NCBI GenBank assembly: GCA_965216875.1
Contig: OZ244207.1
Coordinates: forward strand, 5,120,001-5,184,000
Direction: 5' to 3'
Origin: Rubripirellula sp.
Lineage (GTDB): Bacteria; Planctomycetota; Planctomycetia; Pirellulales; Pirellulaceae
DNA: 64,000 nt
The stretch's first letter is position 1. Every line of letters starts with the position of its first letter. Below the pieces are notes generated by a model. That model ran no database searches. It saw only the letters and a list, made by a program, of their open reading frames with translations, and was not told where the DNA came from. Shown in pieces: positions 11,904 to 20,914 of this stretch. The position numbers and the translations under genes are program-made.

Positions 11904-14720
11904 CTACCGGCCCTCACTGGCAAGGCTGGCGACCGCCGCCTCGATTCTGCGACGACTCTCCTCATTGACCACCCAGTCGGACTGGACCGGATAGCCTGCT
12001 TCGGCTGCCGACACCAAATCGCCGACAAGCTGCCGATCATCGATTCGACGAATCAATAACACTTGATGCTGCGAATAGCCATCCCGCAGCAAACGCCATG
12101 TCCAATAGTAGGACGCGTCCGCCACGCCATCGCTCGCATTGCTGAAAGACGCATCAGCGAGGGCTACCTCGTCCTCTTCCAACATGCCAGAACTTTCCGT
12201 CGCGAGCGACTCGTCTTGATCACCGGCAAGGCCATCGTCGGAATCGGCATCAAGTACCTCTCCGACAGAAGACTCAACCGTCGCCTCTTGTTCCGATTGC
12301 TGAAGGGTGGCCGCCACGAGGGCCAAAATGTCTTCGCCGTACTGCTCGATGGTCGCCGCACCGATCCCCGAGACCGCCGCCAATTCTTCACAATTAGCTG
12401 GTTCGGCTTCCGCGACACGATCGATCGTGGCATTGGTCAAAACTCGGTAGGCAGGAATACCGAACGCCGCCGAGGTCTTGTGACGCCAACGTTTCAACTT
12501 GGCCACCAACTCTGCGTTGATCCCCGACTCCTGATCCGATTCTCCCGAGGAAGCGTCTGACTGCTTTGGCTGATCATCCGGCTCGACACTTCGCCCCGCG
12601 GCGGCAAGTCGTTTGGCGAGTGTTTTCGGCAATTGAATGAAATCAGGCATCGGGTCATGTTCGTGCATCACCCGACGTCCCACATCAGTAATGTGAATCG
12701 TTGGCCGACGCTCATCCACTTCCTTCTGTTCCAACAAACCGGCTTCGATCAACACATCCATGACTTGACCGACTTCGGTTTGGCGAAGCCCCGACATCAT
12801 GCCGTAAGTACTTAGACGATGAAGTTTCCACTGCTGTAGCTTCTTGTTCTTGGAACCGCACAGCATTTGCGAAACCATGATCTTGCCAAAGCGGCCGTGC
12901 ATTCGAGTGACGCCGCTCAGCACAACGCGAATGCCGCGGGTGAAGGCGTCGCGGTCGATCCCGTCGAGATGATTGACGCTGACCTCGTCGCCGCTCTTCA
13001 CACTGCTTGCGCCGATCGCATCACATCGGTCGCATGTCCCGCAGCTCTCTTTGGAATCATCGCCAAAGTAATTTAGAATCACTCGCTGTCGGCACATGGC
13101 GGTGCGTGCGAACGCGATGACCGCCTCAAGCTTCTCGTATTCCGACTTCTTGCGGCGTTCCAATTCGTCAAAGTCGATTTCGAGTTCGTTGAAGGGAACA
13201 TCACGCCTTGAAATATGGATCGCTCGGCCGCGAAAGGGTGGGACGTAGTCGAATGCCTTCAGCTTTTTCAGTTCGCGGAGCGTTCGTGAGAGTTGCTCAC
13301 GATCAACATCGGCCAGTTCCATCAATCGCTTTGGCCGCACAAAAACGTCATCGCCACGTCGCTCGCCGACAACGCGTTCGACGGCCTGCATCACTCGGCG
13401 ACGCAGCTTGGCTTCTTTGGGCAGGTAATCGAGCAGCGTGGGCGCGTCGCTATCGATCCGCAGCATTGCGTGATTCGAGTTGCTGTCCATTCGCTTCAGC
13501 ACGCCGGCACGAGCGAGCAACGTTTCCGCCGTTCCAATCGCCTCGCTGCCATCTTTGACGTTGATCGCTTGCCGCACTTCTTCGAGCGTCAATTCGATCG
13601 GATCTTGCTCGAGCCCCAGCAGGTATTCATAGACGCTCTTTACCGTCTCGCGGGACGGATAGCGATTCTCGATAAAGAACTCTTGGATGTATCGGTCGCT
13701 GTACGAAAACAGCAACACGCAATCGCTGTTATCGCCGTCGCGCCCGGCGCGACCAGCTTCCTGGTAGTAAGCTTCGAGACTGCCAGGCATGTTGTAGTGC
13801 ACGACATAGCGAATGTCGGACTTGTCGATCCCCATCCCAAACGCGTTGGTTGCGACAATCGCGCTCAATTTGCCCGACATGAAATCGTCTTGCACTTGCT
13901 TGCGTTGGTGTGGCTCGAGACCCGCATGATAAACACCGATCGGGCGTCCAAGACGTTGGGGCAACCACTCGGCAAGCTCTTCGCAACGTTTTCGAGTCGC
14001 CGCGTAAATGATGCCGGCACCTGTCTGCGCCGACAAATACGTTTGCAGTTGCTCTTCCTTGTCGCGATCCGAATTCGCGTGCAGCACTTTGAACCGCAGG
14101 TTCTTTCGCGCAAACCCCGTCACAAAGACGTGCGGCTTCTTCAACCCCAACAATTGGCCAATGTCGTCGCGAACCAACGGTGTCGCGGTGGCCGTGAGCG
14201 CAATGGTTTGAACGTTTTGCAGGTACCGCTCGCGAAACAGCCCCAGCCGCGAATAGTCCGGGCGAAAGTCGTGTCCCCATTCGCTCACGCAGTGCGCTTC
14301 GTCAACCGCAAGCAGAGTGACCTTGGCATCGGCGACCGCTTGCAGGAAACGGTTGTTCCGCAAGCGCTCCGGCGCGACGTAGACCATTTGCAGTTGGCCG
14401 GCCGCCATCTCGTTCATCACTTCCGCTTGCTCGCCGGCCGAAAGACTGCTGTTGATCAGTTTTGCCGAAATACCAAGTTGTTGCAGCGCATCCACTTGGT
14501 CCTTCATCAATGCGATCAAGGGCGAAACGACAATCGTGACGCCCTCGCGAGCCAAACTGGGAAGCTGGTAACAAAGACTCTTGCCACCCCCAGTCGGCAT
14601 CACGCACATCACGTCTTCGCCCGACGCAACGCTTTCGACAACGTCGCGTTGACCAGGCCGAAAATCCTTGAGCCCAAATCGCGAGAGCAGTGATGTAAGG
14701 TCAGCTACCGAGCCAGACAT
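11904..14720 (-). CDS. recQ: RecQ family ATP-dependent DNA helicase
   Basis: MPTGGGKSLCYQLP, VDEAHCVSEWGHDFRP, YYQEAGRAGRDG, zinc site CRQ...CGTCDRC, RQC and HRDC-like regions. Confidence 0.95.
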   Translation of the reverse strand: MSGSVADLTSLLSRFGLKDFRPGQRDVVESVASGEDVMCVMPTGGGKSLCYQLPSLAREGVTIVVSPLIALMKDQVDALQQLGISAKLINSSLSAGEQAEVMNEMAAGQLQMVYVAPERLRNNRFLQAVADAKVTLLAVDEAHCVSEWGHDFRPDYSRLGLFRERYLQNVQTIALTATATPLVRDDIGQLLGLKKPHVFVTGFARKNLRFKVLHANSDRDKEEQLQTYLSAQTGAGIIYAATRKRCEELAEWLPQRLGRPIGVYHAGLEPHQRKQVQDDFMSGKLSAIVATNAFGMGIDKSDIRYVVHYNMPGSLEAYYQEAGRAGRDGDNSDCVLLFSYSDRYIQEFFIENRYPSRETVKSVYEYLLGLEQDPIELTLEEVRQAINVKDGSEAIGTAETLLARAGVLKRMDSNSNHAMLRIDSDAPTLLDYLPKEAKLRRRVMQAVERVVGERRGDDVFVRPKRLMELADVDREQLSRTLRELKKLKAFDYVPPFRGRAIHISRRDVPFNELEIDFDELERRKKSEYEKLEAVIAFARTAMCRQRVILNYFGDDSKESCGTCDRCDAIGASSVKSGDEVSVNHLDGIDRDAFTRGIRVVLSGVTRMHGRFGKIMVSQMLCGSKNKKLQQWKLHRLSTYGMMSGLRQTEVGQVMDVLIEAGLLEQKEVDERRPTIHITDVGRRVMHEHDPMPDFIQLPKTLAKRLAAAGRSVEPDDQPKQSDASSGESDQESGINAELVAKLKRWRHKTSAAFGIPAYRVLTNATIDRVAEAEPANCEELAAVSGIGAATIEQYGEDILALVAATLQQSEQEATVESSVGEVLDADSDDGLAGDQDESLATESSGMLEEDEVALADASFSNASDGVADASYYWTWRLLRDGYSQHQVLLIRRIDDRQLVGDLVSAAEAGYPVQSDWVVNEESRRRIEAAVASLASEGR

Positions 14721-14929: not shown

Positions 14930-15895
14930 ATGGATGCAATCAAACTTCAAGACAGCCACGTTTCTTTTTGCAAAAACCAGCCAATCCCGACGCCAGCCGA
15001 TGACGAGGTCTTGGTTGAGGTGCTGCAAGCGGGGATCTGCGAAACCGATCTACAACTTGCCCGCGGGTACATGGGATTCCAAGGAGTGCTGGGGCACGAA
15101 TTCGTTGGTGTCGCCCAATCGGGGCGATTCTCGGGTCGACGCGTCGTCGGCGAAATCAATTGCAACTGCCGGCAGTGCCCGCGCTGCGCGTCCGGCCTAG
15201 GAAACCACTGCCCCAATCGGACGGTCATCGGCATCGACAAACACGATGGTGCGTTTGCCCAGTTCGTCAGCGTCCCCGAACATTGCCTCCACCCCGTTCC
15301 TGAATCGATCAGCAATGACCAAGCCGTTTTGGTTGAACCGCTTGCCGCTGGCTTCCAGATCCTCAGTCAGGTTTCATTCACGAGCGAGACCTCCGTGCTG
15401 ATCCTTGGTGACGGCCGGCTCGCCTACATGTCGGCGCAAGCTTTACTGACCGTCGTCGCACCGGAAAACTTGTCGATCGTTGGCAAGCATTCAGCCAAGC
15501 TGGCTCGGTTTGATCGCTGGTCCATCACGACCCACCCGCTCAACCAACTTGAAAGCGTTGAAACCAAGTCGTTCGATGTCGTGATCGACTGCACAGGATC
15601 AAAGACCGGCTTACCGCTGGCACTCCAGATGGTTCGACCGCGAGGTACCGTGGTCCTCAAGACGACCGTCGCGGGGCATCACGATCTTTCATTGGCCGCG
15701 ATCGTGATCGACGAAATCAACATTGTTGGTTCTCGATGCGGTCCCTTCGCCAAAGCAATCGAAGCGTAAGAAAACGGCCAAGTCAACGTCGACGGACTTG
15801 TCACCCACCGCTATCGACTCGACCAAGCCGATGACGCTTTTCGGAAAGCGACCGACCCGGAAGCCTTCAAAGTCGTCTTCACTGTGGCCAACTAA
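14930..15895 (+). pseudogene. Zinc-binding (MDR) alcohol dehydrogenase interrupted by an in-frame TAA at 15767-15769
   Basis: GICETD, GHEFVG, CNCRQCPRC...HC. After AIEA* the same frame continues ENGQVNVDGLVTHRYRLDQADDAFRKATDPEAFKVVFTVAN*, a typical MDR C-terminus. Confidence 0.8.
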
Positions 15896-16148: not shown

Positions 16149-16760
16149 ATGCCCAGGCCGCTGACGTTTCAGCTTGGCGAGTGCGAGTTCACTGGCACTC
16201 TCAAAAAAGTCGACCGCTCGAAGCTGTACGGCTACAAAGAAGTTCAAGCGTTGGATGACGAGAATGACACGTGTGATCTCGCCACGCTCGCCGGTGATGG
16301 ACGCACATTGATTGGACGCGGTGGCACAGGTCTTGGTTGGCTCGATGCCGACGGATGTTGGCAAGAAAAGTCCGACTTGAAACCCGTCGACAAAGACGGC
16401 AAAGAAATCGAACCGGTTGCGAGTTCATTTAGTGCGCCGGTCAAACTCTTCGACACTGCAACGACCGAAGACTACCTCGACCATAACGTTCGACTTGTCT
16501 ACGCCATGGACCTTGATGGCGACCTTGACGATGTGGTCGCCGAATTGAAACGAGGGACGATTTTCAAGTTCCCGTACAGCTATCGCGGCGGCCTCGAAGC
16601 CGACACCGCCTTTCTACTGACCAACGAAGCTGGCGAAATCATGATGGCTGTCGGCGATCCGGCAAGGATCGAATACATCGGCATGCAAAAGACCGCCGCA
16701 ACCGTTGTCGAAGAAGACAGCGAGGAAGAAGGCGGGCTGATGGACTTTGACATGATCTAA
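16149..16760 (+). CDS. Hypothetical protein, putative divergent Ku-core homolog (Ku-like A)
   Basis: 203-aa ORF with an acidic tail; its segment order matches the bacterial Ku core by eye (see findings). Confidence 0.7.
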   Translation: MPRPLTFQLGECEFTGTLKKVDRSKLYGYKEVQALDDENDTCDLATLAGDGRTLIGRGGTGLGWLDADGCWQEKSDLKPVDKDGKEIEPVASSFSAPVKLFDTATTEDYLDHNVRLVYAMDLDGDLDDVVAELKRGTIFKFPYSYRGGLEADTAFLLTNEAGEIMMAVGDPARIEYIGMQKTAATVVEEDSEEEGGLMDFDMI

Positions 16761-16805: not shown

Positions 16806-17519
16806 GTGGGCGAAATCAACCTCAGCAACAGTGCTGGACGCGATGCGGTCGTTTCAACCGATAGCGTCTCAAGCTCGAAACAAACGCGTTGGCTCGATCA
16901 ACAAAGCCGACAAGCGTCAAGTGTTCGTATCGCAAAGTCGACGGTCGAGCACGATATCGATTCGCTTCTGGAAAAACATGGCGACCTCTCGGCTCTTGCC
17001 GACGCTCTCGTTGTGTCGGACCCCGAAATCGATTTCGAAAACACCGGCCGCTTCTTGAGCGAAACGTCGCGCGTCTACATCGGCCAAGATCGAAAGATCG
17101 TCCGCAACGTTCGTTTCATGGAAATCGTCAAGAACGCCGATGGCTCGGTTCGCGAAGAACGGCCGCGTGTGCTTGCCGATACGAATGTCGCAGGCGAGTC
17201 GCCGCTGAAATGGTCCGGCGTCTACATCCCGAAAGACAAGGCGATTCGCAAGTTCGTCTTCTCAGGCAAAGTGCAATTGCATCACGTCAACGGCCTGACT
17301 TTCGACTTCCTGTTTGGGATGGCCAAGGAACTTCAGCAGCGCAATTGCTTGATGCTATTGGGCGCCGGATCGAAATCGAACCAACCTCTGATCCTTCGTC
17401 GCGGTGGCACGCCTTATCGCGGCTTCCTCGAAGGCCGAATTGAAGGGGACGAGTATTGCTTGTTGCTGCATTTCTCGAACCTCGAACTGAAACTTCCTGA
17501 ACCTGGCGAAGAAGACTGA
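16806..17519 (+). CDS. Hypothetical protein, putative divergent Ku-core homolog (Ku-like B)
   Basis: 237-aa ORF with a GTG start. The C-terminal half FVFSGKVQL..LFGMAKELQQRN..LILRRGGTPYRGFLEGR..YCLLLH resembles the Ku barrel. Confidence 0.7.
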   Translation: MGEINLSNSAGRDAVVSTDSVSSSKQTRWLDQQSRQASSVRIAKSTVEHDIDSLLEKHGDLSALADALVVSDPEIDFENTGRFLSETSRVYIGQDRKIVRNVRFMEIVKNADGSVREERPRVLADTNVAGESPLKWSGVYIPKDKAIRKFVFSGKVQLHHVNGLTFDFLFGMAKELQQRNCLMLLGAGSKSNQPLILRRGGTPYRGFLEGRIEGDEYCLLLHFSNLELKLPEPGEED

Positions 17520-17535: not shown

Positions 17536-19179
17536 ATGAGCACTGCGACTGATCTGTTGGACCGCCAGCGGTTCGAAATCAAGATGGGCGACTATGGCGT
17601 GGGTACCTCACACGCTGTCGCCGATTCGAACATTCTTGCCAAGACGCAAGACTATCGTCGACAAGCCGGTTCACGGATGATCCCGCTGGGAAAATCGGAC
17701 ATCCGAGGAAAAATCCCAGCATCGGATTATCACGTCTCACGAAAAGTCGACGGTGAGTTTACGGTTTTGGTGTACCGCGACGGCGAGATCTTTTCGATCA
17801 ACCCTGGCGGAACTGTTCGCATCGGTCTGCCATGGCAAGCCGAAGCCGCCAAAGCACTCAAGAAAGCGAACATCAACGAAGCGATGATCGCTGGCGAGCT
17901 TTACGTTCACAATGAAGAACGTCGCCCGCGCGTCCATGATGTGAGCCAAGTCGCCAGGCAACCTGACAGCGAAGCCGACCTCCAACTTCTTTGCTTTGCC
18001 GTCTTCGATGTGATTTCCATCGATCAGCAGCCCGCAAGCGAAGCCTACGCGAGCACTTGGCAAACCATCGAAAGCCTGTTTGGTGGCGGCGATCTCGTTC
18101 ACCCCGTTGAAACTCGAATCATCGCCGACACCGGTGGCATCGAACAGCTGTTTGATAAATGGGTCGAGGGAGAAGATGCCGAAGGCTTGGTCGTGCGCAG
18201 CGACAGTGCGGGATCGTTCAAAGTCAAACCTCGCCACACCGTTGATGCGGTGGTGGTCGGATTCACCGAATCGACCGACGACCGTCAAGGCATGCTCCAT
18301 GACTTACTCGTCGCCGTGATGCGCGAAGACGGAACGTTTCAGATCCTTTGCCGAGTGGGCGGTGGCTTTGATGAAGACGAACGCCGGTCATTACTTAGCG
18401 ACCTGAAAGACATGGTCGTGCCAAGCGAATACGCCGAAGTCAATTCCGATTACGTCGCTTACCAAATGGTGCGTCCCAATTGGGTCATCGAGATCAGCTG
18501 CCTTGACATGATTTCGCAGACGACCCGTGGCGGCAACATCAACCGCATGGTGCTCGACTTCGACGCCGACGACACAGGCGGCTACAAAGTCGTCCGACGC
18601 CTTCCACTTGCAACCGTGATTTCACCCCAGTTCGTTCGCATTCGCGAAGACAAACAGGTGCATCCCAAAGATGTGCGTCTTGCTCAGGTGAGTGACCGTG
18701 TTGAAGTGGCGATGACCGAGCTGGACGCCAAGAACTTTAAGCTCCCCAAAACCGAAATCTTGCACCGCGAGGTCTACACGAAAGAATCGAAGGGCCAAAC
18801 GATGGTCCGAAAATTCGTTGTGCTCAAGACAAACAAAGAAGAAGAAACCGAAGAATACCCAGCGTTCGTGCTCCATTACACGGACTTCAGCCCGAACCGC
18901 AAGGATCCTTTGTCACGCGACGTTGCGGTCAGCGATTCGAAGGAACAGATCGAGGCACTTCTGCAGACCTGCAAAGACGAGAACATCAAAAAGGGTTGGA
19001 ACGCGGTAGGGGAGGGGAGTGCGGACGCGCAAGCGGTCGCCGTCGAGGAAGCCCCGAAAAAGACCGCGAAGAAGAAGGTGACCAAAAAGAAAGTCGCCAA
19101 GAAAAAAACGGCAACCGCTGAAAAAACCGACGCGGCACCGAAGAAAAAACGAGCCACCAAGAAAAAGAAGGCGAAGTAG
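17536..19179 (+). CDS. ATP-dependent DNA ligase (NTase + OB) with a WGR-like domain and a Lys/Ala-rich tail
   Basis: Motifs RKVDGE (I), AGELY (III), FAVFDV (IIIa), EGLVVR (IV), FKVKP (V); OB fold DAVVVGF..RVGGGF..PQFVRIREDK; RBS-like GGGAG upstream. Confidence 0.9.
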   Translation: MSTATDLLDRQRFEIKMGDYGVGTSHAVADSNILAKTQDYRRQAGSRMIPLGKSDIRGKIPASDYHVSRKVDGEFTVLVYRDGEIFSINPGGTVRIGLPWQAEAAKALKKANINEAMIAGELYVHNEERRPRVHDVSQVARQPDSEADLQLLCFAVFDVISIDQQPASEAYASTWQTIESLFGGGDLVHPVETRIIADTGGIEQLFDKWVEGEDAEGLVVRSDSAGSFKVKPRHTVDAVVVGFTESTDDRQGMLHDLLVAVMREDGTFQILCRVGGGFDEDERRSLLSDLKDMVVPSEYAEVNSDYVAYQMVRPNWVIEISCLDMISQTTRGGNINRMVLDFDADDTGGYKVVRRLPLATVISPQFVRIREDKQVHPKDVRLAQVSDRVEVAMTELDAKNFKLPKTEILHREVYTKESKGQTMVRKFVVLKTNKEEETEEYPAFVLHYTDFSPNRKDPLSRDVAVSDSKEQIEALLQTCKDENIKKGWNAVGEGSADAQAVAVEEAPKKTAKKKVTKKKVAKKKTATAEKTDAAPKKKRATKKKKAK

Positions 19180-19273: not shown

Positions 19274-19352
19274 CGTAGCTACCTTCGCCAGAAGGTGGTT
19301 TCCATTGGCAGACCGCTTCCCAACACCCCACGCTCTGGCGAGCGTAGCTACG
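19274..19352. repeat. GTAG-type REP doublet (family A)
   Basis: Same arms as 8243-8293 with a longer spacer. Confidence 0.85.
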
Positions 19353-20379
19353 GCGAGCGTTTGTTGTCATGCACAGCATGACCTACTAGACGGAGTGTTA
19401 CCGAACGATGGTCCGAGCCGATGTCGGGACCAACGTTGTGCTGGACGCACTGGAGGTCGGTGCTGATCATCCCGTGATCAAGCACCAGCCCAAAGGCTGG
19501 GTTCGCAAACCGGGCGTACCAAGTCGGCTGCATCCCACTTGATGCACGCCTCAAGTGCGACCGACGCTCGAAGTCGCCAAAAAGCGGAGACCAAGGCGTC
19601 AAGTTCAAGTCGCCTACAAGGATCGTCGGCATCGTGTCACGATTCCTTTCCCGCGAGATCCTATCAGCAAGCTGCTTCAAGTGGTCGTTGCGTCTATCAA
19701 ATCCTCTCTTTCCCATAGGCGGAAGCGGATGAGTTGCAATCACTCGGTACTGCTTTGATTCCTTTTCAATCGTTGCTGCAATGGTGAGGATGCGATCGAC
19801 GTTTAATTCAAAGCTTTGGCAATCGGTTATCGGAAACCGGCTGTAGAGTCCGATCCCGAAATTACTGTCATCCATTGGGAATGGCTGTCGGAATGGGTAC
19901 CGTTGACCAAATTCGCTGACGATCCGATCCCCCAACGATGTACTCAATTCCAACACAGCAAAAACATCGGGACTCCTTTCGGAGATATCATCGATGATCG
20001 CCTCATGATTCCTGTTCGCCGTGTTAACGTTGGTCACCATCACTACGATCTCATTGCCGCCGGCAAGCTCAACATTTGCCGGGAGCATTGATCGAAAGAA
20101 AGACAGGTGGATCGTGATCAAGGTCGCACCGAACAAGGCCCAGCGCCATTTGCGGTAGCAGACTGACACCATCGAAACGCCCAGCAACCCGATCACTTGC
20201 TGCACGCGCAGGTTCGCAACGATGTCGGCGACCCAATGTTGCCGAGCGAAGAAAGCGGCGAGTGTCGTCACTGTGCCAATCGCAAGGCAGACAACGACTA
20301 ACGACCAAATCCGTTCAGCGGCCCATTTCAGTAGGCCCGACGATTCGGTGGGCGATGAAGACGAATCGTGATCATTCAT
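19348..20379 (-). CDS. Membrane-anchored endonuclease/exonuclease/phosphatase family protein
   Basis: N-terminal TM helices; NV..N, VLE, ATHP, VGDLNLTPWS, LDH, GSDH; start taken as MNDHD at 20379. Confidence 0.88.
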   Translation of the reverse strand: MNDHDSSSSPTESSGLLKWAAERIWSLVVVCLAIGTVTTLAAFFARQHWVADIVANLRVQQVIGLLGVSMVSVCYRKWRWALFGATLITIHLSFFRSMLPANVELAGGNEIVVMVTNVNTANRNHEAIIDDISERSPDVFAVLELSTSLGDRIVSEFGQRYPFRQPFPMDDSNFGIGLYSRFPITDCQSFELNVDRILTIAATIEKESKQYRVIATHPLPPMGKRGFDRRNDHLKQLADRISRERNRDTMPTILVGDLNLTPWSPLFGDFERRSHLRRASSGMQPTWYARFANPAFGLVLDHGMISTDLQCVQHNVGPDIGSDHRSVTLRLVGHAVHDNKRSP

Positions 20380-20914
20380 CCTCAAACGCACGCTTCTGCA
20401 ATCCTCGGCCCTGCAAGTAATCGCTAATGGGCCTGGGGCAGCCTTGAAGACGTCCCTCGTCGTGCATGCGGAGATAGAAATCCCAGTAGCTGCGAACGCT
20501 GTGTTGCGAGACCAAGTATTCGATGAAGGTCTCACCAATGCAGTACAACCGGTCGTAAACCGCCGGGCAGTATTCAATGACCGGACGGTTGAGCACAAGC
20601 AGCCCGCCTTCGAGACTTGCCGTTCGCTCAAGGGTCCACTCAGCGAGATCACCACAGGTTTCGAAACGCACGTTGAAATGACAACGCTCAGACCGAGTCA
20701 GCGTCAACGTCGCTCCATCATCATGCACGTACCGAGCCCAGCGTCCGATGACATCCCGTTCCCCATCGCTCGATTGATAAACGTTGACTCCATAGTCACG
20801 CAGCAACGGGCGCAGGTCCTCGCTATCCATCGGCCGGCGTTGAAGACGCAGATCGAGGTCACGCTCGATTTCGCGATTCCGATCAGTATCCACCATCTCT
20901 GCATTCATGGTCAC
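20372..20914 (-). CDS. Hypothetical protein
   Basis: 180-aa ORF whose stop overlaps the EEP gene start; RBS-like AGGTG upstream. Confidence 0.55.
   Translation of the reverse strand: MTMNAEMVDTDRNREIERDLDLRLQRRPMDSEDLRPLLRDYGVNVYQSSDGERDVIGRWARYVHDDGATLTLTRSERCHFNVRFETCGDLAEWTLERTASLEGGLLVLNRPVIEYCPAVYDRLYCIGETFIEYLVSQHSVRSYWDFYLRMHDEGRLQGCPRPISDYLQGRGLQKRAFEDE

Follow-up and report, generated by a model that had tools for sequence, protein, structure and literature searches.

How might a bacterium in which neither Ku nor LigD is detected rejoin broken DNA ends? The question is raised by three consecutive genes, here called ORF A, ORF B and ORF C, that lie in a window of 64,000 nucleotides from Rubripirellula sp. 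(GCA_965216875.1, contig OZ244207.1, positions 5,120,001 to 5,184,000 of the forward strand). The source genome is a single contig of 8.26 Mb and is 99% complete; neither Ku nor the LigD Prim-Pol domain (PF21686) was found in it, and a match to NAD-dependent ligase is present. Surveys of bacterial end joining score Ku and LigD by sequence, and this genome scores neither. The three genes are kept together as a set of one ligase and two predicted Ku folds, and the set is therefore likely to be an overlooked kit for the repair of DNA breaks. We consider it probable, though well short of certain, that A and B form a heterodimeric Ku-like ring on DNA ends that serves the adjacent ligase in a cryptic form of NHEJ (non-homologous end joining).

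A preliminary description, made by eye, matched ORF A to the Ku core segment by segment, and noted the absence of the helical arm and an acidic tail. All quoted segments and the C-terminus are indeed found in ORF A, which ends in EEDSEEEGGLMDFDMI. ORF A represents a genuine family, with 592 of 821 candidate proteins matching at E ≤ 1e-3 and 693 clusters (50% identity) at the same threshold; its closest named homologues belong to Pirellulaceae planctomycetes. No Pfam or NCBIfam match was obtained for ORF A, and the Pfam Ku model (PF02735) matches 0 of 150 family members. Comparison by hhalign with 14, then 31, Ku sequences gave a probability of 0.1–0.2%, and the sequence search of the PDB with ORF A profiles returned no match, nor did a metagenome scan with a single distant A as query. 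ORF A and ORF B have no match in PHROGs or PADLOC, and their ESM Atlas features are unnamed clusters or weak rows. The correspondence of ORF A with Ku is undetectable by sequence. The segment-wise match thus did not survive profile-profile comparison, apart from one weak hhalign alignment in the register first proposed, and it is the predicted fold that upholds it.

In the ORF A model 160–170 residues align with those of bacterial Ku, almost 1:1 in register and with a root mean square deviation of about 6 Å, and the two best viral fold matches are phage Ku proteins. Chains that contain only a SPOC barrel align over about 100–114 residues; the SPOC-peptide complexes 6ic8 and 2rt5 are among the close fold matches of both A and B. 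Barrel and bridge of the Ku fold are both present in the model, with the geometry of the bridge uncertain in a monomer. Covariation of the N-terminal hairpin with the C-terminal strands (L5-V168, G16-A154, L18-M166) places the hairpin within the barrel independently of the model, and further pairs lie within the C-terminal half of the barrel (Y109-A167, L116-Y143, L116-M165, R115-D152, H112-T153). The bridge-equivalent region has conserved K20, R23, K25 and Y27 at its start and K74 inside, and these residues and R146 are near-invariant. The best ordered matches stop near Ku residue 176–188. No helix corresponding to the sling or pillar helix of the arm follows residue 171 in the model, and disorder begins at about residue 185. 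Structure prediction and fold searches therefore agree with the earlier description on two points, the Ku core and the missing arm: ORF A is predicted to have the barrel and bridge of the Ku fold but no helical arm.

The disordered tail of ORF A was examined in 99 distant full-length representatives, namely the 108 of 150 listed clusters with a length of 185–216 amino acids minus nine that match the profile in part only, eight of which have no tail. A strict motif, hydrophobic-D-F followed by one to three residues, occurs in 87 of the 99 and a looser form in 96; Asp is found at position −5 in 86, Phe at −4 in 90 and Met at −2 in 80. Among their 25 C-terminal residues are on average 10 Asp or Glu and 0.4 Lys or Arg, compared with 3–13 Lys or Arg in 14 Ku proteins, and the basic extended C-terminus typical of most bacterial Ku is lacking. 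Because the profile search had scored the tail as well, the motif was sought again in copies from loci found through core peptides, B or genome search, and it is present in 144 of 151; six of the seven exceptions still end in acidic and hydrophobic residues, and one is a frameshifted copy. The acidic-hydrophobic tail of the preliminary description and its terminal DF.M motif are thus conserved in distant homologues. A fixed motif at a free disordered end looks like a docking peptide, and the tail is likely to be one, presumably comparable to the acidic docking tail of SSB. As to its partner, the ligase suggested earlier is a tentative first choice, ORF B or a basic surface of the ring itself is a possible but doubtful second, and a host protein is unlikely. 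Ku C-termini bind LigD in canonical systems, according to the accessible parts of two reports (PMC4889933; PMC13717202).

ORF B is predicted to be a second Ku fold without the arm. Its model shows barrel plus bridge, residues 1–230 span Ku 4–174 only, and Ku80 chains head its Foldseek list. Like ORF A it has no Pfam or NCBIfam match, and hhalign against Ku gave a probability of 0.1–1.5%. The two bridge helices of ORF B have no counterpart in A, where the profile alignment of A with B shows a gap, and the C-terminal half of the barrel is basic, with conserved Lys and Arg. An early shallow comparison of A with B was negative, and a later one gave E 0.008. The hhalign score of 37 lies above all 40 block-shuffled controls, which reach 22.8 at most; this significance required some 400 and 340 rows in the two profiles. 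By this profile comparison A and B are sequence-related, distant paralogues. The preliminary description dealt with A alone; with a second such subunit predicted from the next gene, a heterodimer is likely to be the working unit, and B becomes the second candidate partner of the tail.

On its sequence motifs ORF C is an ATP-dependent DNA ligase with an intact catalytic site, linked to A and B. PF04679 matches 73 of 73 family members and PF01068 matches 61, and K70, D72, G73, E121, E216, K229 and K231 are invariant in all 73. The best PDB matches of the profile are DNA ligases (3rr5, 9dfa, 9df9, 2cfm) and ligase 1; full-size DNA ligases and ligase 1 are matched at E 1e-14 to 1e-18 and the LigD ligase domain at E 0.2, and TIGR02779 scores 63.7 bits, where its cut-off is 227.75. 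No LigD Prim-Pol or phosphoesterase domain occurs in the 73 members, and ORF C is too short for a LigB-type N-terminal DNA-binding domain. The extra C-terminal domain has invariant R411, K416, K426, N433, K434, S452, R455, G487 and W488. Its resemblance to 13 WGR domains is weak (hhalign probability 3.7%, E 0.012, 25 columns in the last helix), and Pfam WGR (PF05406) matches neither the 73 members nor the site in the source genome. The lysine-rich tail that follows was counted in 111 complete loci, six of which were skipped by the pattern; among the other 105, C carries it in 41, B in seven, both in one and neither in 56. Loci with a lysine-rich tail on ORF B are L012, L066, L068, L070, L131, L132, L141, L157 and L173, and the ligase tail is absent from all of these except L070.

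The order A-B-C is conserved across loci. Among 80 genome loci found through A, B is next in 74, a contig edge intervenes in two and B is absent in four; at the 74 A-B loci C is next in 70, the contig ends in two and C is absent in two. All eight further loci from the phylum have A-B-C. Through B, 80 metagenome loci were found, of which 65 have A, 10 end at the contig and five lack A despite room, and the ligase is present in 68, cut off by a contig end in seven and absent in five. Four draft genomes carry an unlinked A, and in these B occurs elsewhere in three and the ligase in three. Trees of A, B and C from 100 loci agree (Spearman 0.87–0.92), as would be expected of linked genes anyway. 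A divergent A-B-C unit, present in three copies in one draft genome, G162 (L116, L118, L119), and also in G289 (L117), has a shorter A with a degenerate tail motif.

The system is patchy in its distribution, being present in 7 of 301 genomes of the phylum and 17 of 151 genomes of the family. Matched as single proteins, homologues with a name are found for A in Desulfobacterales, Cytophagaceae and Bacteroidia (three plus one named of 20 looked up) and for B in Acetivibrio cellulolyticus, Pseudobacteroides and Myxococcales. Canonical Ku has a similar frequency in the family, at 20 of the 151 genomes, and a Ku match is found in 7 of 80 carrier genomes, two of the matches being fragments. Six planctomycete genomes (G054, G079, G172, G214, G276, G471) have two adjacent canonical ku genes of ku3-ku4-like arrangement.

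Other genes accompany the unit at some loci. A gene for an AEP-TOTE-like primase (PF22548, E 2.7e-4, below the cut-off) lies near it at 17 of the 168 loci, and at seven (L166, L169, L177, L184, L187, L197, L198) it is directly 3' of the ligase. The C-terminal domain of the AEP-like protein, with a DLDG motif, has no Pfam match, and we take it to be HAD-like. The protein is a candidate to fill gaps and heal ends. A BRCT-MerR-TPR gene is found near or just 3' of the ligase in 14 loci, among them L024, L027, L033, L034, L040, L046, L053, L072 and L125; its counterpart in the source genome (C1:2295735-2296937) lies outside the operon.

From these features we infer a heterodimer, its binding to DNA ends, its service to the ligase and a division of labour between A and B. 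The bridges of A and B would interlock, and the resulting asymmetric ring would slide over a broken DNA end. Most contacts with the DNA backbone would come from the basic B, and the docking tail from the acidic A, while the extra helices of B or the tail of A might substitute for the lost arm. The ring would hold ORF C, itself devoid of the DNA-binding domain seen in ligase 1, and hand the end to it. The linked AEP-like protein, where present, could supply the polymerase that LigD has and ORF C lacks.

Several observations weigh against such a ring. The region of mycobacterial Ku that is missing from A and B carries the dimer contacts of sling and pillar and part of the synapsis pocket, as given in the accessible portion of PMC12784962, and both proteins stop before it; the stability of the ring must consequently have another source. 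The core of ORF A is acidic, with a median net charge of −12 compared with +2 for Ku, so that A alone would be a poor DNA binder, and SPOC barrels score near Ku in fold searches. Inter-protein covariation, calculated from 129 pairs (effective number 95) and 100 triples (71), yielded no usable signal, either for an A-B interface or for the tail partner; the scores of I203 in the tail are similar with W100 and K485 of the ligase and with R148 of B. A replacement of Ku by the system is rejected, as the co-occurrence of the two is near expectation: 2 of 151 family genomes have both where 2.25 are expected, and none in the phylum sample where 0.9 are expected. The AEP homologue of the source genome (C1:2730710-2731726) is distant from the operon, which leaves no end-processing gene linked to it here.

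Other explanations are less likely. A and B might be a Ku-fold clamp for the ligase that acts on a nick, a gap or another stationary-phase intermediate, in a repair resembling that of LigC or LigB. The nearness of the ligase profile to full-size ligases and ligase 1, far above the LigD ligase domain, would suit this explanation, as would an ORF C whose missing N-terminal DNA-binding domain is a role that a clamp could fill, the lack of anticorrelation between the system and Ku, and the absence of arm and synapsis helices from A and B. We nevertheless regard it as unlikely, because a closed Ku ring loads only via a free DNA end, and the ring-closing bridge is retained over the 160–170 aligned residues of both models. 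Less probable again is an arrangement in which a B homodimer is the DNA-binding Ku and A a regulator or adaptor that caps or inhibits B or links it to another protein. SPOC barrels bind acidic peptides, the SPOC-peptide complexes are close in fold, and the A core is acidic while the barrel half of B is basic, its Lys and Arg being conserved; B also has more relatives in like searches (1915 versus 592 for A), and is without an upstream A at the five loci mentioned above. Match counts depend on divergence, however, and A evolves faster than B (tree length 29.8 versus 20.9). Moreover, A retains the entire bridge and the six near-invariant residues, which would be needless in a peptide carrier.

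It is also conceivable, at a still lower probability, that the unit acts on foreign or mobile DNA, by joining the ends of incoming or excised molecules or in defence or counter-defence, rather than on chromosome breaks. Its patchy spread, the named relatives of A or B among Bacteroidota, Desulfobacterales, Bacillota and Myxococcales, and the three copies in one genome would be in line with this. Canonical Ku is equally patchy, though, and the neighbours of the unit here are ordinary chromosomal genes; viral contigs gave no match to A, plasmids none to B or C, PADLOC none, and PHROGs matched the ligase only. The heterodimeric ring on DNA ends remains our preferred explanation. In its broadest form, that of a widespread third kind of Ku, an obligate heterodimer of armless, sequence-invisible subunits with split duties, an SSB-like tail and a non-LigD ligase of its own, the proposal is tentative and falls somewhat short of an even chance.

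Table 1. Positions in the window of the three genes, their parts and the flanking genes.
Feature	Position	Strand	Description and basis
ORF A	16149..16760	+	203 amino acids; predicted armless Ku-fold subunit, acidic core, conserved acidic-hydrophobic tail
ORF A, residues 1-20	16149..16208	+	N-terminal beta-hairpin of the Ku/SPOC barrel; model strands E5-9, E12-20
ORF A, residues 21-97	16209..16439	+	bridge-equivalent region; aligned to Ku bridge, conservation
ORF A, residues 98-171	16440..16661	+	C-terminal half of barrel with two short helices; model and covariation
ORF A, residues 185-203	16701..16757	+	disordered acidic tail, hydrophobic-D-F-x-M-hydrophobic end; pLDDT (predicted local distance difference test) below 50, conservation
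ORF B	16806..17519	+	237 amino acids; predicted second armless Ku-fold subunit, A paralogue, basic C-terminal barrel half
ORF B, residues 51-70	16956..17015	+	two helices inside bridge region; H51-58, H61-70 in model
ORF C	17536..19179	+	547 amino acids; ATP-dependent DNA ligase, nucleotidyltransferase and OB
ORF C, residues 400-488	18733..18999	+	additional conserved domain, C-terminal, with KKGW at its end; likeness to WGR seen by eye only
ORF C, lysine-rich tail	19000..19176	+	optional in relatives; in some on ORF B
RecQ-like helicase gene	11904..14720	-	5' of operon; assigned by eye
Zinc-binding alcohol dehydrogenase gene	14930..15895	+	5' of operon
Endonuclease/exonuclease/phosphatase gene	19348..20655	-	3' of operon; PF03372

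The flanking genes are listed in Table 1. The helicase gene is next to the operon in the closest relatives only (five loci). The alcohol dehydrogenase gene has an in-frame TAA at 15767-15769, beyond which about 40 more codons stay open and read as a plausible C-terminus; the stop is due either to nonsense mutation or to an error in sequencing. An unannotated small gene without a Pfam match lies on the opposite strand just 5' of A in 15 loci (L043, L044, L048, L054, L057-L059, L063, L065, L069, L074-L077, L079). An upstream palindrome is not conserved (the best one is in 12 of 130 regions), no promoter-like site was seen, terminator-like sites are no more frequent than by chance, and no RNA holder is listed.

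If the proposed ring exists, the spread of bacterial NHEJ has been underestimated, and a separate pathway operates in bacteria that are scored NHEJ-negative. A Ku ring could then function without the arm that joins known Ku dimers, and a heterodimeric Ku with split duties, unlike Ku70/80 and Ku3/Ku4, would exist. The three genes might also provide a minimal end-joining tool, and the conserved terminal peptide of A offers an immediate handle on its partner. The A-B-C system is not described in the literature searched, which includes the accessible parts of PMC11936186 and bioRxiv 10.1101/2023.09.30.560322, supplements and subscription papers aside.

Among known systems, bacterial NHEJ by a Ku homodimer (PF02735; PDB 9vnq, 9i91, 8v53) and LigD shares with A-B-C the predicted barrel-bridge fold in near 1:1 register, an ATP-dependent ligase in the operon and a C-terminal peptide free for partner binding. 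Unlike bacterial Ku, A and B are two unlike subunits without sequence similarity to it and without sling and pillar helices, and the tail of A is acidic-hydrophobic. ORF C differs from LigD in having no polymerase or phosphoesterase and a C-terminal domain of its own, and the lysine-rich tail, if any, is on the ligase or B. The available text of PMC6379672 proposes Ku3-Ku4 of Sinorhizobium meliloti, which act with LigD4, as heterodimers; these resemble A and B as two ku-type genes that stay together in a single operon, only one of them lysine-tailed, with a heterodimer inferred. Ku3 and Ku4 are, however, presented there as recognizable Ku orthologues that work with LigD, whereas A and B escape detection by profiles, lack the arm and have a non-LigD ligase.

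The core of eukaryotic Ku70/Ku80 is likewise matched in fold by A and B, and consists of two unlike paralogues. A and B lack the vWA domain, the arm, SAP and the Ku80 C-terminal domain, identity is 8–13%, and no special relationship is evident. The barrels of SPOC, MED25-ACID, Sld7 and INTS13-14 have no bridge and align over about 100–114 residues, compared with about 160 for Ku. In Planctomycetia and delta-proteobacteria, taxa shared with ORF C, there are NT-OB2-WGR ligases (PMC7470946, in its accessible part) that resemble ORF C, an ATP-dependent ligase whose additional domain may be WGR-like, and that part makes no mention of Ku-like partners. In contrast to these ligases, the OB domain of ORF C is PF04679 in 73 of 73 members, with OB_2 weakly in two and Pfam WGR in none. 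A-B-C would work like Ku-ligase NHEJ, yet by the criteria tested it stands outside both Pfam Ku and Ku-LigD.
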